Shown piece after piece: positions 4,956 to 64,000 of a DNA stretch of 64,000 nucleotides. Under the pieces are notes generated by a model, which did not search any database, was not told the DNA's origin, and worked only from the letters and a program-made list of their open reading frames with translations. The DNA comes from Ginglymostoma cirratum. Taxonomy: Eukaryota. The position numbers and the translations under genes are program-made. The DNA lies in assembly GCA_024137785.1 (NCBI GenBank), contig JAHRHZ010000082.1, positions 9,202,052-9,266,051 of the forward strand. Direction: 5' to 3'. Every line of letters begins with the position of its first letter. The stretch's first letter is position 1.

Positions 4956-6084
4956 TCTGAGTCTGATGTTAGGTTGGAGGCAAAAGGACTGCCCTTCTGT
5001 AAGTGATGAGTAGGTAATCAACGTAAGTGAAGAGGTCAGTTAACACGAGCAGACTGGAACTTCCCAATCACCCAGCAGGACCCCTTTGCTTCAAGAACAG
5101 GCAGAATTCTACTGTAAGACAACATTCCAGTGGTACACAGTGTGGTCTGTACTCCAGGTGGACTGAGACCCTTTTTGCCAACCTCCCTATCTTTGTAGCC
5201 ATGGCGCTGTCCTGTGGAATGGTCCCCTTCCTAAATGGTTGATTGGAAGTTACGACCAATTTCCAAACTCAAGTTTTGAAAGCGCAGAGAAATTCTGCCT
5301 CAAAGTAGAATGACCTAGCCATAAGGCTCCTTCGTCCTATTGAACAGACAGCTTCAAGTGTCTATCCCCTGTCCAGTAATTATTTAGGGGGTGCAATCTA
5401 TTGCCATTAATTGAGCAATACAGGAAAAACCACTGCTACCTGACTGTTCCCAACCTGTGTTCCATTTGCACTTTGTTTTCACACAGGTTTTGGGGGTTCA
5501 TACCAAAATTGCAAAGTCCTACTTGTGGAGTCAGTCATAGCTCAGCTCGTAGCACTCTAGACTGAGGCAGAAGGTTGTGGCTTTAAGCCTCACACCACAA
5601 ATTAAGAACAAGCACTAAACTGCATGCTAAGTGTACATATTTCATAATCTGTTGATCTTCTTACTTTTGGCTCAATCCTATTAGTTGCTGTTTCAATACC
5701 TTCACTACCTTTTTCCTCTGTATAAGTAAAGCTTACATTGAAGATCCGAAGAATGACAAACATGGCGTAATTCAGTGGAGAGTATGTGCATACACATCTA
5801 CGCAGATGGAGAGAGGCAGTAGAGGTGAGTAGGTCAGAAATATCAACTGATTACACTCTTCCAGTTACAATCAATTGCACTTTGTACGATGTAAAGGATG
5901 GAAAATATTTAGTAAAACTGGAATCAACTGCTTTTTGATTGTGGAATATGCATTAATGCATGCTGCAAGATTTTGCACTGGTGGGAAAATCAACATGAAA
6001 AGACTGCATCAAACAATCACAGTTACAATGTCAATTGTCCCAAAGGCAGTGTGTTCATGTTTGTCCCTCAATATGGATTAACTA

Positions 6085-6200
6085 ACATCCTGGGGAAAGG
6101 TCACCGGACTTGAAATGTTAACTCTATTTTTTCCTTCACAGATGCTGCTGGACCTGCTGAGTTTTTCCAGTAACTTTGTTTCTGTTTCATCTGGAATTGT
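6085..6200 (+). mobile_element. PLE 3'-terminal fragment with degenerate HHR core
   Basis: GAAAGGTCACCGGACTTGAAATGTTAACTC...ACAGATGCTGCTGGACCTGCTGAGTTTTTCCAG matches the copies at 21937-22000 and 53035-53105. Confidence 0.65.
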
Positions 6201-21294: not shown

Positions 21295-22285
21295 GGTAAC
21301 AACAGAGACAATTGATATGATACTCATAGACTTCCAAAAGATGTTTGATAGAAGTGCCATATAATCAGCTTGCTAGTAAAATTGAAGCAATGGATGCGAA
21401 AGGGAGAGTGGTAGCATATGTACAAAGTTGTCTGGCTGATAGGAAACAGAGTTGTGGTGAGTGGTTTTGTTTCAGACTTGAGGAAAGTGCAAAATAGCAT
21501 TCACCAGGATTTAAGTGATCTACCTTAAAGATTTAGACACAATCTCAGAATTTTCAGATTTCGCGAAACTTGGAAGCATTTTGAACTGTGAGGAGGATAG
21601 TGATAAATTTCATCTGTCATGTGTTTCCCTATTCCACCAGCCTATGTCCCCTTGAAATCCAAGGTAGAGAATGTGGAGTGATATATTTTCGTTGGAAGAA
21701 TGAGGAGAGACAATATTAGAGAAAGAAGTCCATTTTAGGTGGGGCACAGAAGCTAAAGGATCAGGGACAAGAAGGGAGAGGGGAAGGAGTGGAGAAGAAT
21801 CAATATATATAAAAACCAAAAGAAATATGGATGCTATAAATCAGAAGTAAAAATAAAAATTGCTGGAAAAACTCAGCAGGTCTGGCAGCATCTGCGGAGA
21901 GAGATCGGAGTTGAGAGCCACTGGACCCAAAACATAAACTCTGATTTCTCTCCACAGATGCTGCCAGACCTGCTGAGATTTTCCAGCAATTTCTGTTTTT
22001 GAATCAATATTTGTACATGAATTGCTATATGTGGCAGGAAAGGTTAGAAAATAGTTAAAAGGGCAGGAAAGTTACACTGAACCTCAACGAAACACTGGTT
22101 CACCTTTGATACGTGTCCAATTCTGGGCATCACTTTAGGAAGAAAGGAAAATTAAATAATTATTCGAGGTAAAATTGACAGTTACAGGGAAAGAGTAGGG
22201 AATTGGGACAACCTCAGTTTGTTTGGTGGACAACCAACACTGATGACAGGTCAAATGGCGTTTCTTCTCTGCTATAACTATTCTG
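21295..22285 (+). mobile_element. Old CR1 LINE RT/3' fragment with internal deletions, interrupted by a PLE hairpin insertion
   Basis: ATAGACTTCCAAAAGATGTTTGATA (DFQKAFD-like), GTGTCCAATTCTGG (CVQFW) and 3' tail GGTCAAATGGCGTTTCTTCTCTGCTATAACTATTCT. Confidence 0.8.
21807..22000. mobile_element. 194-bp palindromic PLE-terminus insertion with 10-bp TSD
   Basis: TSD GAATCAATAT at 21797-21806 and 22001-22010; inverted arms ~21850-21912 and 21937-22000; loop holds GGACCCAAAAC, a decayed CCCGAAAC. Confidence 0.8.
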
Positions 22286-35004: not shown

Positions 35005-35370
35005 AAAAAAAAATGAATACTGCAGATGTTGGAAATCTGAAATTAAAAGTGAACATGATAGAAATACTTATCAAGTTATAGCAACATCTAGACAGCAAGA
35101 AACATAACATACATGTTAGTTTTGTGACTGTTCATCAAAACAGGAACTGACAGAAGTATACTGTTCCTTCCAATCAGAAAATGCTGGCTAAACATGATGA
35201 ACTAAAAAAAGTTGGAAACCCTATTTCCAATCTATATTGAACAAAAAGTTACATGTTTTACCAGACCAAATACAGAGAATGCTGAAGAAACTCGGCAGGT
35301 CTGGCAGTAACTGTGGAGAGAGAAACAGAGTTAATATTTTGAGTCAGTATGATGTGCCTTCAGAACACAT
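35005..35370 (-). mobile_element. Two or three degenerate PLE 3'-end fragments
   Basis: ACTGCAGATGTTGGAAATCTGAAAT (~35019) and TGCTGAAGAAACTCGGCAGGTCTGGCAG..GTGGAGAGAGAAACAGAGTTAA (~35280-35333) match 21860-21912. Confidence 0.65.
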
Positions 35371-38789: not shown

Positions 38790-38912
38790 TGTATCAGAGA
38801 TAGTAGGAACTGCCGATGCTGGAGAATCTGAGATAACAAGGTGTAGAGCTGGATGAACACAGCAGGCCAAGCAGCATCAGAGGAGCTGGAAAGCTTGACG
38901 TTTCGGGCCGAG
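38790..38912 (-). mobile_element. 123-bp PLE-terminus insertion with 8-bp TSD, inside a SINE tail (~38680-38960)
   Basis: TSD ACTAATGC at 38782-38789 and 38913-38920; minus strand begins TCTCGGCCCGAAACGTCAAG, the 3' half of the HHR core. Confidence 0.75.
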
Positions 38913-39807
38913 ACTAATGCAGCCTTGTTGATGATGCTGCTGCATGCATCACCTTAAAGAGAAAAGGAATAACGAAGTGCGGTGAGGTGAATTTCGAGAG
39001 GAGTCCCTGAAACTTGTAGCTCAAAATTCAATAATGACATCCAACCCAGATGGCAATTTTAGCTGGTAGCTTGAGCAAGGATTCTCTTGCTCCTTTTCTT
39101 AGAGGGGAACATAGTGGGAAGAGCCAGAAAGTGTCCAAATCACAAAAGTCACTTTTCTGAACATGGAGTAACATGAATGCAATTCCAGCCCGCCACAACA
39201 AAGGTTAGATATTGCTAATTGTTCCACAGTCTTTCCCTTCCCCTCTTTTCTTAGACTCTGTCAACCTTCTCTCTTCACAATTTTCCTGAAAGCTGTCTGC
39301 CATTCCTTCAGTCCCACCTAGTAGGTCCTTGCCACATGAGCTCATGATCATACTCACTGGACAAATGTCAAGGTCAGGGTGAGTCTGACCCCCCATCTCT
39401 TACACCAAAGATCAAATTGAACTATTTGAAGAGAGAGTAATGCTAAATAATGCAGAGAGTATAAAATCACAAATCATGTGATCAATATGTGTGGCATATT
39501 ATAAACAGTTATACAGAATCCAAGCCATGTCATTCTATCCATTAATTGTTCATTGAACTCATTGATAAATTGTAAAGACCTCTTTAATTTAAGACAAATC
39601 AGGATCTTGCTCCTGATCCTGGCCCGGACTTCCTAGTAAGCCCCACTTCAAACCTTTTTCTTCCTTGGCATCATTTACTCAAATCTGACAGAGGAATTGG
39701 GTATGAAAATCCTTAGAAATGAAACTTGTGGTGTAATTCCAGTTCAAGTCTGGGACCTGATAAGGTACGTTGTTCTTATAATATCCTGTTAAAGTCACCA
39801 CAGAAGT

Positions 39808-47859: not shown

Positions 47860-47990
47860 ATCATCATGCTGAAAAATCATCAACCTAAAATGTTAACTCT
47901 GCTTCTGTCTTCACATATGATGCCTGACCTTCCAAGATTTTCCAATATTTTAACTTCAAATTTCTAATATCTGCAGCGTTTTGCCTTCAC
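47860..47990 (+). mobile_element. Degenerate PLE 3' end
   Basis: ACCTAAAATGTTAACTCTG..TTCACATATGATGCCTGACCT..ATCTGCAGCGTTTTGC. Confidence 0.55.
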
Positions 47991-50180: not shown

Positions 50181-52535
50181 GTCATAGAGTCATCGAGCAA
50201 TACAACATGAAAACAGGCCCTTTGACCTAAACTGGTCCATGCTGACCATGATGCTCACTCAGCTTGTTCCAATTGCTCACATGGTCCATTTCCCTCTAAA
50301 TCCTTCTCATCCATGTACCTATCTAAATTTTTTTTAATGTTGCTATTGTACCTGCCTCAACTAATTTCTCTGGTGGCCCATTCCATATATGCACCACTCT
50401 CTGCATGAAGAATTGCCCCTCAGATCCTTCTTAAATCTTTACCCTCTCACTTTAAACCTATAGCCTCTAGTTTTCAATCTCCTTCCCTGGGAAAAAAGAC
50501 TTTATGCATTCATCCTATCTATGCCCCTCATGATTTAATACTCTTTAATAATGTCACCTCTCATTCTCCTACGTTCCAAGGAATAAACTCCTATTCTGGC
50601 CAAACTCTTCCTTTAATCCAGGCCTACTAATCATGACAACATCTTCGTAAATCTTCTTTGCACACTTTCCAGTTTAATCATGTATTTCTTATAACAGGGT
50701 CACCAAAACTGTACACAATACTCCAAGTGCGGCCTCACCAACGACTTATACAACTGTAACATAATGAGCCAACTCCTATACTCAATGCCTCGATGGATGA
50801 AGACCAGCATGCTAAATGCCTTCTTCACCACCCTGTCCACCTGTGATGCCGCTTTCAATAAATGATGTACTTGTGCTCCTAGATCCCTTCATTTCACAAC
50901 ACTCCTCAGGACCTTACCATTTATCGTATAAGTCCTACCTTGGTTTGACTTTCCAAAGTTCAACACCTCACACTTATCTGTATTGAATTGCATTTGCCAA
51001 TCCTCAGCCCCACTTCCCCATCTGATCAAGATCCCACTGTAATTTTTCATAATCTTCACCACAATCAATGATATCTCCTATTTTTGTATCATTCACAAAC
51101 TTACTAGTCATGCCTTGTACATTCACATCCAGATCATTTCTATAAATAACATATAACAAAGGTCCAAGCACCGACCCCTGTGGCTTACCGGTAGACACAG
51201 GCCTCCAGCCTGAGAAACAACCTTCAACCATTACCCTCGGCTTCCTAACATCAAGCCAATTTTGAATGCAATTCGCAACTCTCCCTGGATCCCATCCAAT
51301 CTAACCTTCATGACTAACCTGCCATGCAGGACCTTTTCAAAAGCCTTACTAAAGTCCATATAGACAACATCCACTGCCCTACCCTCTTCCATCCTCTTGG
51401 TTACCTCTTTAAAAAATCTCTAAAAGATTTATCAGACATGACTTCCCACACACAAATCCATACTGAATATCCCTAAGTAATTAGACCTTGACTATATAAT
51501 TGTTGCTTGATCCTGTTCCTCAGTATCCCCTCCAGTAACTTACCTACCACCGATGTCAGGCTCACTGGCCTGTAATTTCTTAGTTTGTCTTTGCTACCTT
51601 TCTTAAACAATGGAACAACATTAGCTACCCTCCAGTCTTCCGGAAATTCACCAGTGGCTAAAGATGAAGCAAAAATCTCTGCAAGGGCCTCTGCAATTAG
51701 TTCCTTAGCCTCCCACAACATCCGAGGTTGGACTTGATTAGGCTCAGAGGATTTATCCACCTTAATGTGATCTAAGGCTGAGGGCACCTCCTCTCTGGTA
51801 ATATGTATGTGGTCCAAAACATCCCCACTTGTTTCCCTTCTTTCCTTAGCATCCATGATTCTCTCATTAGTAAACACCAAGAAGAAATATTCATTAAAAA
51901 TCGCCCCCATCTCCTGTGGCTCCACACATTGACAGCCATGCTGATCTTTAAGGGGACCTATTCTCTCTCTGGCCATCGTTTTGTTCTTAACATAGTTATG
52001 GAGCCTCATGGGATTTTCTTTACCCTTATCTGCCAGATCCATCACACACCCTCTTTTTGCTCTTCTGATTTCCCTCTTAAGTGTGGTCCTACACTTTTTA
52101 TAGTCATCTAGGGATTTACTTGAGCCCAATAGCTTAAACCCAATATATGCATACTTCTTCCTCCTGACCAAAGCCTCAATATCCCTCGTCAGCCAGGGAT
52201 CCCTAAACCTGCCAGCTTTTCCCTTCACCCGAACAAGGATATATTGTCCCTGGACTCTTGATATCAAACTTTTAAAAGCCTCCCATTTGCCAGTTGTTCC
52301 TTTTCCTTCAAGTCGACTCACCCAATCGACTGCTGCTAGATCCTGCCTAATGGCCCCCAAATTGACCCTGCTCCAGTTTAGCACCTTAACCTGTGCACCT
52401 GTCCTATCTTTTTCCATAACTATGTTAAAACTAAGAGATAAGTAGTAACTGCACCCAAAGTGCTCTCCGACTGACACTTCAGTCACTTGCCTGACCTTGT
52501 TTCCAAGAGGATGTCCAGAGTTGCACCCTCCCGAG
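50181..52535 (-). pseudogene. CR1/HER1 LINE, ~2.35 kb, 5'-truncated; disabled ORF2 (endonuclease C-terminus, RT) and 3' UTR
   Basis: ORF 51473-52633 has VGEHFGCSYY (SDH lost), PEDWRVANVVPLFKKG and NYRPVSLTSVVGKLLE; ORF 51004-51231 has GKPQGSVLGPLLY and KFVND (FADD lost); ends (CTCTATGA)-like at 50181. Confidence 0.95.
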
Positions 52536-52574
52536 TAGGGCCCTCCACATTCAGGAAACTTTCTTAGACACATT

Positions 52575-52770
52575 TGACACAGAAAGCCAGGACACAGCAA
52601 GCCAGGCAACATCTGGAGGAAAGGAGAAGTCAATGTTTTGTGTATTACCTTTCTTCAGGCCTGGGTGTGGGGTAAGGGGAGCTGCAGATAAAGTGTGTGT
52701 GGGGTGGGGGGCGCGGGGTAGGTGGGTAATGGAATGGTAGTGATAAATGGGCACTGGTAGTAGGGCTTGA
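52575..52770 (-). mobile_element. PLE 3' region fragment
   Basis: ACACAGCAAGCCAGGCAACATCTGGAGGAAAGGAGAAGTCAATGTTT..CCTTTCTTCAGG; the minus strand shows CTGAAGA..AAACATTGAC, then a G-rich UTR-like tract. Confidence 0.6.
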
Positions 52771-52789: not shown

Positions 52790-53130
52790 ATCCCAATCCC
52801 CACACATCAGGCCTTGTTATCATATGGTCTGCTGTTACATACCACATCATTAGCCACTAATTGTCCACTAACCGCTATTCATTTTCCCAGGCTGATCGTT
52901 ATCCACTCCTTTATCGGTCCAACTATTTTTCTCTCTCTTTGGGTTCTATCTCCACCTATCATTTACTCCTTAACCCCTCTCCCACCCTATCTTTTCCATA
53001 CAAGCCAACATTTTCCTGGCTACCATCAGTTCGGAGGAAAGGTCACTGAACCAGAAACGTTGACTCTGATTTCTCTCCACAGATGCTGGCAGAGCTGTTG
53101 AGCCATTCCGTGATTTCTGGCTTCGTTACA
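52790..53130 (+). mobile_element. PLE 3' region fragment
   Basis: CT-rich UTR, then CAGTTCGGAGGAAAGGTCACTGAACCAGAAACGTTGACTCTGATTTCTCTCCACAGATGCTG. Confidence 0.7.
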
Positions 53131-53954: not shown

Positions 53955-54285
53955 ATTAAAAAGAACAGAATAATTCATTCTGGTGACCTGACAATATTTA
54001 TCTCTCAACCAGCAACACAAAAACAAATTAAAGCCAAAATTGCTGGAGAAACTCAGCAGCTCTGGCAGCTTCCATGGAGGGAAAACAGAGTTAACTTCCA
54101 AGTCCAGCAATCCTTCTTCCAATCAAATTACCTGGTCATTGTTGTTTGTGAGACCTTTGTGTGTGCAAGTTGGCTGCATAATTCCTGGCATTTCAACAGT
54201 GATTATGCTGCAAACTACTTAATTGGTTCCACAGCACTTTGGGATATCCTGTGATCATTCACAAAGCTACCTAAATGTAAATTGA
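53955..54285 (+). mobile_element. DeuSINE 3' half, interrupted by a PLE insertion
   Basis: CTGGTGACCTGACAATATTTATCTCTCAACC, CTGGTCATTGTTGTTTGTGAGACCTT, CAACAGTGATTA, AGCACTTTGGGATATCCTG. Confidence 0.75.
54031..54123 (-). mobile_element. 93-bp PLE-terminus insertion with 7-bp TSD
   Basis: TSD CAAATTA at 54024-54030 and 54124-54130; removing the insert restores the DeuSINE CAAATTA-CCTGGTCATT junction. Confidence 0.75.
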
Positions 54286-57864: not shown

Positions 57865-58235
57865 TGCATTTATTTGTGGAATGTAGGTGTAAGTCGACAT
57901 ATATTGCCCATCTTTAATTGCCCTTGAGAAGATGGCATTTAGCCATCTATAACTAAGTGGCTTGCTTAGCTATTTCAAAGAGCAGTTATGAGTCAGTCAC
58001 CTCACTGTGGGTTCAGTTTCGGAAACAGACCAAACCACGTGATAGTGGAAGATTTCCTTCAGTAAAAGGCATTGATATATTCTCGTTGCAACCTTCTGAT
58101 CACTGTTGCTTACACCAGTCATTTTTATCTCTTCAAATTAATTTAGTTAATTGAGTTCCTCAATTTCTGAGACGGAGTTTTGAATTATGTCGTTTGACCA
58201 TAAGTCCAAAAGTCTAACATTATGCCACTGCACTC
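57865..58235 (-). mobile_element. Degenerate tRNA-SINE (family of 15752)
   Basis: ATTGCCCATCTTTAATTGCCCTTGAGAAG, GAGCAGTTATGAGTCAG, CAGACCAAACC and TTTCCTTC. Confidence 0.6.
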
Positions 58236-59964
58236 AAATTGCGATATACTGAGATTGTGAAAGTCTTTCTCTTGTTTAAATATGTAATTATAGACTCTAG
58301 GTATGTATTCTTGCTGTTTGATGAAGATTATGTTCAAAATGGATACATTAGCAGCAAAGTGTTCTCAGCAAATGCCCTTCCAACAGCAGGTAAATGACAG
58401 AGCTGACCTTTAAAAATGTGCAAACAAGCCTGCATTTTGCATTATTTCTTATGTTAGACTTTTTACACTCTGAAAGATTCATTTGGAAGTTCAATTTCTG
58501 AAAAACATCTTTGGGGATTTATGCTGGAAAGAGTTACATTGTTCAGAGTCACTATTAGTTAAAATTATAATTCGGAGAATTCCTTTGTTGATGTAGTAAT
58601 TTTTCCTATCACACTGAATAATAACGAGTTAAGTTTATTAGTGTACATTAACTGCAATGTAAGTTTTCCAAAAGAGTTTTAACTTACCTGCTTAATATTA
58701 CTTAGTCGCTGAGTGCTTCATTTTCAATATCCCCGTGATTGACCTAAAGCAGAACCAACCTGCAATCTAAGTAAGTGTGAACACAGGCTATATACATGCT
58801 GCAGTTTAGAGACTGTTTGAAGAATGAGTCCCTCTGGGATTAAGTAGATAATAGAATTGGAACTTTATTCTTTTCTGTGTGGGGGAACAATAGTGCTCAG
58901 TAGTTCCCTATGCCTTCCATCAACACTTTGGACACCCGGAGATGGCAGTCACAGGATAGGCATCACAGAACTTGGCAATGGGCTAAGTAACTTGTCTTAG
59001 CTCCAGATTCAAACCAGGATGGTCTTTGCAAATTACATTTTGTACACCAGTCATCTGAATCAGATTCTTGATTTATTGTCAATTAAGGCAAATTGGGGAC
59101 ATTTTTCTGCTGTTGGCCTAAGCCCACTGTAGGATTTGGATTGACACTGTTCAAACTCACTTGAAAGAGGACCTTCATAGTCAATAGACAAGGGAGTCTT
59201 TCATCCCTTCCATCTCGGCTCAGTTTGAAGCAGCTCCCAATGGTGCATAAAGCAATATTTGAAATCTGCGTCTTAATTTAGCAAAATGGACTTATTGAGC
59301 ACGAACAATCTGCTTTTAAAAAAAATACAACAATCAACTATTTTATGCAGCTTGATTAGTTATAGCCTTACTTACAGCAACCGAGCGCAATAAATGTAAT
59401 TATATTTATGAAAGATGGGAGAATCTGTTTTGTAACTTGTCATTATTTTGCTTGTATACATTAGTTTAATTCATCAATCTTATCTTGATTCCAAAATATG
59501 ACAGCTCTCAAACAGCTTCCATAAGCATTATGTACTTTTTTTTTAGATTGACGAGGTTAAGTCTGCATTTCAAGCAATGAAACCATGAATTTACTGTGAA
59601 AATTCAACTCACACATTCATCCTGCATGTGATAGTATATTGTATATGTTTTATCACTTGCAAGTATTATATCACTGATGAACAAAATTCTGTAGTGTATA
59701 CTTGTTAATATATATTGGAATGGATTTTGCAGCCAATAGCAAAGAAGCAGGTTGGACTGTTGTCAGTGATGTAAGCAGTGACCAACGTCCTCACAGGCTT
59801 TAAAGTAGAGGTTTGCTCTACTCTGGCATCTGATTCAATGCATCACCATTTACACAGTATTGTAGCATCTGTGAGTGGTACATGAGATAGCTAGTCTGTT
59901 CAACAAACCAGATTGAAGAATCCACGCAGACACACAGAATCTAAAACAAAGAAGCTCAAAGCAG

Positions 59965-60178
59965 AGATAGTCAGAGCTCCCGATGCTGGAGTCAAACATA
60001 ACACAGTGTGGAGCTGGAGGAGCACAGCAGGCCAGGTGGCATCAGAGGAGTAGGAAAGTTGACGTTTCGGGTTGGGACCCTTTTATAAAGAAGGGTCCAG
60101 ACCTGAAATGTCAACTTTCCTGTTCATCTGATGCAGACTGGCCTGCTGTGTTCCTCCAACTCCACACTGTGTTATCTC
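59965..60178. mobile_element. 214-bp palindromic PLE-terminus insertion with 13-bp TSD
   Basis: TSD AAGCTCAAAGCAG at 59952-59964 and 60179-60191; ~87-bp inverted arms 59998-60084 / 60089-60175 meeting at GGACCCTTTT-ATAA-AGAAGGGTCC. Confidence 0.85.
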
Positions 60179-60249
60179 AAGCTCAAAGCAGGAACTGCAA
60201 CAGAGTTTAATACACTAAATAAGAGCACATGGTGTAGGGGCCATACAGG

Positions 60250-61090
60250 ACGGACAGAAATTGGTCAGCTAGATAAAGCAGGGCATTCATCGATTGTTTT
60301 CAGGTCGGCAGGAGGTAGCAAATAGAGCGCCCCAGGTTCAGTGTTAGTCCTCAACAATATCCAATCTATACAACTGATTTGGATGAAGGGATATAGTGCT
60401 TAATTTGTTGATGGTTCAATGATAAGTAGGAGAGAACATGTAAAGAGGACACGAGGAGTCTGCAGAGGGACATAAGTAGGTGAAGTGAGTGGAGCAATAA
60501 TTTGGCAGATGGAGTATCATGTCGGAAAATATGAACTTGTCCACTTTTGCAGGAAGAATAAAACTGTTTAGCCTCCTTCTTTAAGAAAGGTAAGGCATGT
60601 GCTGCAAGCAATTCAGAGAAGGGTCAATTGTTTGATACCTGGGATTGGGATGGCATATCTTCTGAGGAAATAATGGTCAGGTTAAGCCTGTATCTACTGG
60701 AGTTTAGAAGAATAAAAAGTGATTTTATTGAAGCATATAAGATCCTGTGTGGACTTAGCATGATGGATGCTGAGAGAATGGTTCCCTTTTTGAGAGAGAT
60801 TAGAACAATGAGATACACTTGGAAAATAAAGGGCCACCTACTTAAGATGATGATAAGGACCATGTTTCCTCCCAGATAGCTGTCAGTCTTTAGAACTCAC
60901 TATCCTGAAAAGTGGCAGAGGCAGGGTTATCAAACACCTTTGAAACAGAGGTATATTCTTGGGTAACAAGTGAATCAAAGCTTACTAGCGAGAAAGTGCA
61001 AATATGGAGTTGAAGCCATAAGAAAAGTTATGAATAGCTGAGCAGGCATGAGGGACTGAATGGCCTACACTTGGTCCTAATTCATATGTA
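60250..61090 (+). mobile_element. Old CR1 RT/3' fragment
   Basis: ORF 60628-60879 RLSLYLLEFRRIKSDFIEAYKIL; LQRDISR-like block at ~60460; tail GGGACTGAATGGCCTACACTTGGTCCTAATTCATATG. Confidence 0.85.
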
Positions 61091-64000
61091 TAATATTCAT
61101 ATTAAGAAAGAAACGCAGGAAAATTTTTTTTTAGAAAATATCTCTAACACAAAATGATTTCTGTGAGAATACAACTCCACATTTGTAAAGTTAGGTTTTC
61201 AGGACTCGAGTGGTTGCTTGATAATTGTGAAGAAATGTGTGTATTTCAATGCTGAGTCAATGGATGAATTCAATTTTCTCATTGTGGCAAGTTTGATGGT
61301 GTGGCATTTAATCAAATGCGTGAATGGTGGGTGGGTCATGGCCATATTCCTCCCTGCACCATGATAAATTCATGACAAAAAGTTTTGTGGATGCCCTTTC
61401 TGCCCTTCGATCAACTGAGACTTGAAGCCCTTAAGGCATTCCTCAGCCTCTACCACTGGTATTGACCCAGAAAGAGCTGTATATGGTGGGATCTTTGCTC
61501 TGCTGGGAGTTTGATAAATGAACCTATGCATTGTTATATATGAGCTCCTGGGAGGTTCCCTCATTCAAAGGCACCCAGGACCTGGCATTGGGAAAATGGA
61601 TCCTGCTGAGAGCCAATCTCTTGATGTTGACACTCTCCTCCCTGGCAACCCTGGCCTCCTTTTACCATCATTCGCCCAGATCCTGGGATCCAGTGACGAT
61701 CCTTGGTATCAGGTGGGTACTGAATTGCCAGCAGTCACTGCCTCCTCAGTGGCACAAGCATTCAATAGAGCTGCTGGTCTCTGATTCACTAGCAGTGCCG
61801 GGCGGCAAGCGTTTAACCTCTAGGTGTTTGATCCCACCCCTGTCCTGCTGTGATGTATTCCTGACTCAGAGTCTTGAGTTTTGGGATAGTTCCCTTAACA
61901 TCATGGACCTGATTCAAACTTTGAGCTGAGAGCATATTGCGTCATTCACTCTAACTTTATTAATCAAAGTTTCACCAAGATGGACTGACCCTTGAGTGAA
62001 AGGCCTTTGTTATTTTCAACTTGTTACTCGTTTCATTACTGTTTTTTCCAAAGGTGTACAAATGTTTTTCAGTTCAGTAAATGTGAAAATATTACAGCAG
62101 CGCCTTATTGACATTCCTTACATAGGCTCTCACCTGGGCAGAGCAAAAGTAAATAAGTTCTACAAATAACAAGTGGTAGATTTTCAAGTGTATTATTCCA
62201 GGTATAAAAGAATGCAGTGAATGAAATATGTACATATATTTCCTTATCACATTGTCAGAACATCACACTATGAATCCCACACAGTTTTTGGAGTGAAGTT
62301 CAGTGACTGCTGCCAAATAGATAACACACAAGTCAAAATGCCCTTTAAGTTGAAGAAAGACAATACTTGCATTAATATAGTATCCAATCACTTTCTCATT
62401 CCATTGTTAAGTGCTTACCAATTCATGAATTACTTTGGAAATACAGCTGCTGTCATTAAGTAAATAGCAAATCATGTCAGGTCTCTTTTTTCATTCTCCT
62501 GCTCCTCTTAAGTGTTGCACTGACCAGGTAGCAATCCTAGTTGAGCAAGTGTGCAGGTGATATAAGCATTCTGTGTTCCAAACATTGGATTATAGTATGG
62601 TTGATTGAAAGAGGCTGCAGGCTAAGAATAAATCCCCCAAGCCTTCCTCGATTCCCTGCTGTAGTCTGCAGGCCACATTGCATTATCTTCTATTTGATCA
62701 GGCCTTCCCAATATTAAACAAAACTGATTTCTTTGGCATAGAGATTTTTTTTCAGTTAGCATTCATGTATTTCACCTTCAGTACAGTATAACACATGGCA
62801 GCTGCCGAGCTCCCCAGCGATGTCAAGGCATCCTCTATCGAGACTAAAAAGATGGATGAGTGCCAATCGGAATGTGGGGCTGTTTAACAATGTGAGGAAG
62901 AGAAAAGCATTAAGTTGCAAGTTTGTGTTAATATTATACTAGCCTGGCCATTGTACATGTTCTGTATGAATGTTCTTTGTAGGCAGCAAAAAAGTTACAT
63001 TTTTTTCTTGGATTTTCAAAGCTTCCCTCTTGGAAATAATCATCAGAACCTGACCCTCCCTCTCCCGATTTCCAATTACAACCAAAACACTTGATTATGT
63101 CAGCAAAAATCATCAGCTAAAAGACTTGAATTTGGAATATTCAATCACACCCTGATAAAGGTGATACAAGGGATAATACTGAACTAATAATGCTGCATCT
63201 TTCAGGTTTGAATCCACCATCTCTCCTATCTCCAGAAGGTTACAACATACAATTTAAATAAACTTAGTATAGGAATACGAACTGCAAGGAGTATCTACTT
63301 AGTCAAAATGAGACAATTATCTCTTTTTTGTCACAGCGACACTTTATGCATTTCATATGAATAAACATTGTCAAAGAAACAGGCTCCACAATGGTCTTGA
63401 AAATCCATGTTTTGGTTTGTTGATTGTGTCAAATTTACTGCACAAATGGAGCTGTACTGGGGGTATTTACAATGGGAATAGAAGTTTCCATTACAACATA
63501 ATTGTTTGGTATACAGTCCAACGATATACAGGTTTTAAAAGGTCATTTGACTCTTCATTTCTGGTATACTTATTGGTAGAATGTCAGTAACATGGATATA
63601 TCGCAATAGATATTTACAGTTGGGATAAGTGTTCACTTCGTCATTTCCAATTATCTAATTCCTTTGACATGCACTTATTTGACAGTTAACTGAATAAACC
63701 ATTGACATATGTTTGCTTAGAAAATTAACATTCTTACTTATGGAGCAGCCTACCATGTTAAATTAATTAGGTATATTTGTAAAAAATGGGTTATTGGAAA
63801 CTAGTCATAGCATCCTATCATCATCTTCAGAAAGGATTCAGTTTCAGTTATAATGATAAAATATTAATGTCAATTTATTGGCTGTGGTGTGAGCTTTGTA
63901 AACAGAATGTGTCAGATCTTTCAAAAAGTCTCACATAGTTTATCACAGCCCAAGATAATCAAGATGAACCTTATGGAGAATAATGTGTGTCAAATGTATA

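Follow-up and report, generated by a model that had tools for sequence, protein, structure and literature searches.

A 214-bp insert lies in a stretch of contig JAHRHZ010000082.1 of Ginglymostoma cirratum, 64,000 nucleotides long and referred to below as the window, and folds back on itself around motifs of a hammerhead ribozyme. The locus raises the question of whether such a hairpin was built at its site of insertion or copied whole from a pre-existing one, and of what placed its axis at a ribozyme. An inverted truncated copy with a tail on one side is the textbook arrangement of Penelope-like elements (PLEs; PMC8557442, available text); the architecture is already published and the locus itself is ordinary. 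The origin of the inverted ends and tails of PLEs and the role of their hammerheads are given as open points in the available text of two sources (PMC8557442; PMC11167929).

Structure of the insert

The insert is flanked by an exact 13-bp direct repeat on the plus strand (59952–59964 and 60179–60191), as the initial annotation had described, and the last 1–3 bases of the left copy also fit a continuation of the template. The inverted repeat reported there was found at 59998–60082 and 60091–60175 (85 nt, 86% complementary), and its fold is strong (-161 kcal/mol, z -18), none of 200 shuffled sequences being equally good. On alignment, the insert is recognized as two copies of the pLTR, or terminal repeat, of a PLE encoding RT and a GIY-YIG endonuclease, placed head to head with a tail on one arm. 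Positions in the pLTR are counted from 0, the first base after GUC, i.e. the predicted hammerhead cut, whose place in both arms we take from the hammerhead numbering.

The left arm (59995–60082, minus strand) covers -21 to +66 and lacks the CUGANGA box. It continues into 30 nt (59965–59994, minus strand; +67 to +96) that the other arm does not have; this unpaired segment, for which no explanation had been offered, is the Penelope ‘tail’ as the term is used in the available text of PMC8557442 and PMC11167929. Together the tailed arm and its tail span -21 to +97 on the minus strand and are 89.9% identical to the family reference. The tail-less arm (60078–60178, plus strand) covers -35/-31 to +66 with 88.1% identity to the reference. 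The arms meet at a head-to-head junction (60078–60084) and overlap there by about 5 nt of microhomology, their alignments sharing 60078–60082. Divergence from the family majority is 7% and 11% for the two arms. The insert has no ORF, and this copy is a dead stub. The ORFs listed for the 64-kb window pointed to no host gene.

Both arms, read outward, contain helix II, GAAA and (C/T)GTC, as had been noted. The further claim that both stop at the CUGANGA box holds for the left arm, which starts 21 nt upstream of the predicted cut and retains a partial core of helix II, GAAA and CGTC (60061–60082, minus strand; predicted cut between 60061 and 60060). It does not hold for the right arm, which starts 31–35 nt upstream and retains a decayed but complete minimal core with box, helix II, GAAA and TGTC (60085–60112, plus strand; predicted cut after 60112), the box at 60085–60091 having two substitutions relative to the CTGAAGA of the family. 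An Rfam search of positions 58000–62000 gave nine matches at E ≤ 10, none of them a hammerhead, and on the hairpin itself only sub-threshold miRNA models; the ribozyme reading therefore rests on the motif and its context. A 34-mer with an intact core box has 364 exact matches in the genome, and the pLTR of the family carries the minimal hammerhead motif. The computed pairing probability of helix II is 0.0 in the whole insert on both strands, compared with 0.84–0.99 in an intact solo copy. In a read-through RNA, the long hairpin is predicted to enclose the ribozyme motifs of the insert, and helix II would not form. If transcribed, the hairpin would be a candidate substrate of Dicer or ADAR, as the initial annotation suggested; two contig sets presumed to derive from RNA did not cover the unique left flank, a result that speaks neither for nor against expression. 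Two A-to-G changes on the plus strand are found among the differences of the insert, with no editing scar in this copy.

Other PLE stubs occur in the window. A solo arm with tail at 38797–38914 (minus strand) belongs to the same group, is 87% identical to the reference and starts inside helix II. A head-to-head hairpin of a second family (family B), with another hammerhead and another arm, lies at 21809–22001, and stubs resembling that family (77–84% identity to copy L214) lie at 6081–6186, 35264–35345, 47883–47944, 53027–53109 and 54037–54119. An older PLE end at 52592–52726 (minus strand, 71%) abuts a 393-aa frame at 51473–52654 (minus strand), presumably a piece of a CR1/L2-type LINE. At three fetched loci (L197, L214 and L252), A/C-type and B-type stubs interrupt or abut one another, and mixed-family head-to-head pairs are among them.

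The parent element

Searching the genome with the insert gave 3,959 candidates, of which 40 were scored and most matched almost end to end. In the best 30 loci the outer ends are constant, the centre is variable and one arm is 30 bases longer. A 39-mer of the arm has 3,580 exact matches, which indicates a large family. Many of the 30 intact-core loci that were fetched run upstream into a common sequence, the translation of which contains an RT thumb, a cysteine linker and an endonuclease; long copies with an exact family-A arm align into the RT/EN coding sequence, one of them with 82% identity over 2.1 kb to copy L091. The 692-aa frame of L091 gives Pfam matches to RVT_1 (E 5e-6, below the cut-off) and GIY-YIG (E 8e-5, above the cut-off). 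It contains YIDD, a CX2-5CxxC linker at residue 541 and a CxxC before YIG at residue 581, with histidines downstream of this CxxC that complete the CCHH motif of EN+ PLEs. A further Pfam search gave weak RVT_1 only, and one old copy, searched as five frameshifted pieces, matched no Pfam family.

Copies sharing the terminus of the insert have a single ORF with RT and, at its C terminus, a GIY-YIG domain, and the pLTR is also found 5' of this ORF; in EN+ PLEs such a pLTR is direct or inverted, with an optional tail of 30–40 bp. The tail-to-ORF junction has 1,124 exact matches; an earlier pattern for it had matched only its own source copy, which carries a deletion. In the copy that was translated, the frame opened by the ATG of the pLTR, inside the arm, meets a stop after 39 codons. 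The PLE origin suggested by the initial annotation is thus supported, the arms being the terminus of RT + GIY-YIG elements, as are the minimal hammerhead motif and the extreme truncation. A CX2-5CxxC linker between RT and EN is a feature of Neptune and Nematis (PMC8557442, available text), and the parent ORF has Neptune/Nematis features in its sequence. An RT piece used as query gave 38,090 candidates, many of them nearly identical and open. Among named proteins, the closest belong to carpet sharks (91%, 84% and 75%), which points to a shark as host. We assume Neptune rather than Nematis from the vertebrate distribution. A young PLE subfamily is also present, with many near-identical RT frames of 500–900 aa, which makes recent activity likely as judged from these frames.

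Tails, 3' ends and duplications

Of the 3,580 exact matches to the 39-mer, which is taken from the 3' part of the arm, 100 were listed and the first 90 of these sampled (contigs C1–C4); after five incomplete ones were left out, 85 arms from 82 independent insertions remained. Their 3' ends are bimodal: 27 of 85 lie at +64 to +68 and 55 at +93 to +97, with three in between. Small hairpins account for 40 of the 85 arms, 38 of these being in hairpins with exactly one tail, two in hairpins with none and none in hairpins with two. Two hairpins of a third family (family C), read by eye, appear to carry both tails. Duplications of at least 7 nt flank 38 of 80 insertions, compared with 3.3% of shuffled pairs; by class, they flank 25 of 38 hairpins and 13 of 42 other insertions. 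Many short copies among loci L301–L330 end 37–277 bp past the tail, inside the 5' region of the ORF, which, as measured against one copy, suggests that RT may also start at other sites beyond the tail.

The 5' ends and the ribozyme

When copies are picked by their 3' end, 49 of 82 5' ends fall in -38 to -22, with a peak at -31, while one falls in -3 to +3 and 16 lie beyond -60. Relative to a uniform distribution, this excess has p of about 3e-21 for the 66 ends that lie in -60 to +24. Families B and C, with 14,200 and 8,805 exact matches, were sampled at 30 loci each; leaving out the reference copy and one or two incomplete ends, 22 of 28 ends in family B and 15 of 27 in family C lie within -10 to +6 of the first C of the core. 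In contigs of a relative (87 and 101 contigs), the loose-end consensus likewise fades just upstream of the hotspot point. If RNAs began at the hotspot, copies spanning the pLTR-to-ORF junction would be expected to end there as well. Near-full-length copies were taken from 30 loci, 18 of which have the pLTR-to-ORF junction and 14 of which were measurable: half of these (7/14) end in -38 to -25 and none beyond. In a second junction set (30 loci, 26 measurable), six end in -31 to -23, five beyond -38 and three at +1 to +3, the rest being internal. Because 5 of 26 junction-bearing copies pass -38, the hotspot is a peak and not a wall.

The initial annotation had linked the breakpoint to the ribozyme. 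The axis is indeed non-random and near the ribozyme, but the link is to its front edge and not to cleavage. That ribozyme cleavage of the template set the breakpoint would be compatible with the few ends at the cut, namely the single family-A end of 82, one of 27 in family C and the three at +1 to +3; these seem, on a rough comparison, no denser than other internal ends. The hotspot lies 22–38 nt upstream of the predicted cut, and the templates that ended there were therefore uncleaved. The chance that cleavage defines the ends is practically negligible. A stall at a G-run was also rejected as the cause of the hotspot, since family B has no C-rich tract and yet has the hotspot.

What stops the copies at this edge may be the start of the RNA or its structure. 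The A of an initiator-like motif, which has the same register in family B, falls at position -32, where helix I also starts; the motif carries little information and overlaps helix I. Families A and C have a TATA-like hexamer 31 nt upstream, which is absent from the two long family-B copies. A TATA/Inr pair in the pLTR has been proposed for rotifer elements (PMC3846280, available text), and the Drosophila Penelope promoter is described as internal and TATA-less in the available part of PMC2377424. Taken on its own, the step in which the hotspot marks the transcription start of the parent RNA has about even odds. A cap-derived extra G was not evident, by eye, at the ends of the family A–C copies inspected.

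Alternatively, a de novo two-ended insertion might stop at the base of helix I by RT drop-off or trimming, with RNA structure or processing, and not the transcription start, setting the point. In each of families A, B and C the hotspot falls on the 5' strand of helix I, some copies run past it, and family B has it without a TATA-like box. However, an RT moving 3' to 5' would come upon the structure from the 3' side, and few ends lie there (0.33 per nt in -21 to +24 vs 2.9 in the hotspot); the near-full-length copies also accumulate at the hotspot. A structural stop is accordingly considered unlikely.

Hairpins probably made anew

The 5'-end pairs are distinct in 33 of 36 independent one-tailed hairpins, and in 26 of the 36 the longer arm starts at -37 to -30. 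In an allele comparison of 62 hairpins (29 top matches and 33 unbiased), no position distinguishes the majority of tailed from that of tail-less arms. Within a hairpin, on the other hand, the two arms agree: a subfamily marker is concordant in 46 of 54, and partner arms share 27 minor alleles, compared with 14.4 ± 2.8 after permutation (0 of 2000 permutations as high). Short (n = 68) and long (n = 17) copies are separated by no allele at p < 0.05, and the long copies are capped by the same small hairpins. The junctions and alleles together make a master hairpin an unlikely source. A separately amplified, non-autonomous hairpin element, with centres eroded after copying from masters, had been one proposal of the initial annotation. 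It would fit the constant outer ends, giving about 214–222 bp in the best 30 matches (a set biased toward full matches), and the share of sampled arms that lie in hairpins, about half. The junction variety and the lack of arm-specific or short-copy-specific alleles speak against it, and we regard it as very improbable. Later deletions at palindrome centres could contribute to the junction variety. A T-run expansion is seen at 6 of 28 short junctions vs 0 of 13 long ones (p = 0.15), and microhomology could explain it.

The other proposal was a fold-back at the ribozyme, in which cDNA or antisense RNA turns at the helix II palindrome and recopies the arm by self-priming. The two arms are highly concordant, and their junctions often use CCC microhomology beside helix II; such junctions are read as self-priming on an antisense template by Arkhipova et al. 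in the available text of PMC3846280. Under this scheme the first-made arm should always be the longer; instead, either arm may be, 21 of 36 tailed and 18 of 36 tail-less arms reaching -27 or further. The hotspot is also present in solo arms, which lack any partner (-38 to -22 in 22 of 28 short solo-class arms), and the end of the second arm at +66 is left unexplained. Directional fold-back is in consequence quite doubtful.

The insert itself is probably not confined to this genome. Two runs of the relative, with 26 differences in 590 bp and 18 in 400 bp, extend into the insert by 25 bases on both sides; this relative, at a divergence of about 4.5%, therefore probably has the same insertion. 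An empty site was not found among the joints listed for its contigs.

A proposed mechanism for head-to-head insertion

From the composition of the insert, the tail asymmetry, the duplications, the hotspot, the diversity of junctions and the concordance of arms, all of them observed in the copies, we infer priming, run-off and joining within one event: a de novo insertion of a head-to-head pLTR pair, to which we assign a probability of about 0.6. The endonuclease would nick the two target strands about 13 nt apart, and both 3' ends would prime reverse transcription on the element RNA, one at the end of the tail (+97) and one at its start (+66). Each cDNA would pass through the uncleaved hammerhead and stop near its 5' edge (-38 to -22), which is most likely where the RNA begins. 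Short microhomology would then join the two cDNA ends, one of them often being trimmed at that time or later. In vitro, the protein of a lizard PLE cleaves both strands and extends them on uncleaved RNA, from two start sites bounding the tail (PMC11167929, available text), and the uncleaved templates at the hotspot are in line with this result.

More tentatively, and at clearly less than even odds, the shark's stubs and hairpins, which number in the tens of thousands, may form an in vivo fossil record of the PLE cycle, with run-off from a pLTR start at the first hammerhead base. If so, the whole ribozyme would be the 5' leader of the RNA and would be copied uncut, and both nicked strands would prime at two fixed sites. 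The counts over the population supply figures that can be tested: a hotspot at the front edge of the ribozyme, none at the cut, and one tail per hairpin. No published description of a 5' hotspot or of double priming in such stubs was found in a search of largely open-access papers; repeat databases such as Repbase or Dfam may already describe the families.

Comparison with known systems

The literature of this section is cited from its available text. The Poseidon PAc of Anolis shares with the proposed scheme the two RT starts bounding the tail, the cutting and extension of both strands and the uncleaved template (PMC11167929). PAc belongs to the Penelope/Poseidon clade, whereas the shark ORF has the CX2-5CxxC linker, and hairpin products and start-site run-off are not among the in vitro results in the available part of that report.

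Minimal type I hammerheads in the pLTRs of PLEs (PMC4209133) have the same core, the same bulged base before helix II and a palindromic helix III. The 2014 survey found mostly single motifs, with opposite-strand pairs 100–700 bp apart, tied to truncated PLEs (PMC4209133); in the shark insert, by contrast, the cores are decayed or incomplete and are predicted to be locked in a hairpin. Non-LTR retrozymes (PMC7229834; bioRxiv 10.64898/2026.07.22.740005) are likewise short, non-coding, hammerhead-bearing and PLE-related. They are head-to-tail tandems with complete ribozymes, while the insert is head to head with a tail and a duplication; its assignment to the retrozymes was rejected, the arms being head to head with one core incomplete and the other decayed. 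A MITE-like mobile hairpin was also rejected, as neither a conserved junction nor diagnostic alleles of its own were found. Hairpins like this one should be annotated as PLE stubs rather than as precursors of microRNAs or as new MITEs.

The closest counterparts are the canonical units of EN+ PLEs (PMC8557442) such as Pen2a_Av (PMC3846280), which show the same inverted pLTR, a tail at one end, duplications of 8–15 bp and strong 5' truncation. The shark unit differs from these in that it is shrunk to the last 100–130 nt on each side and that its 5' ends pile up at one point.
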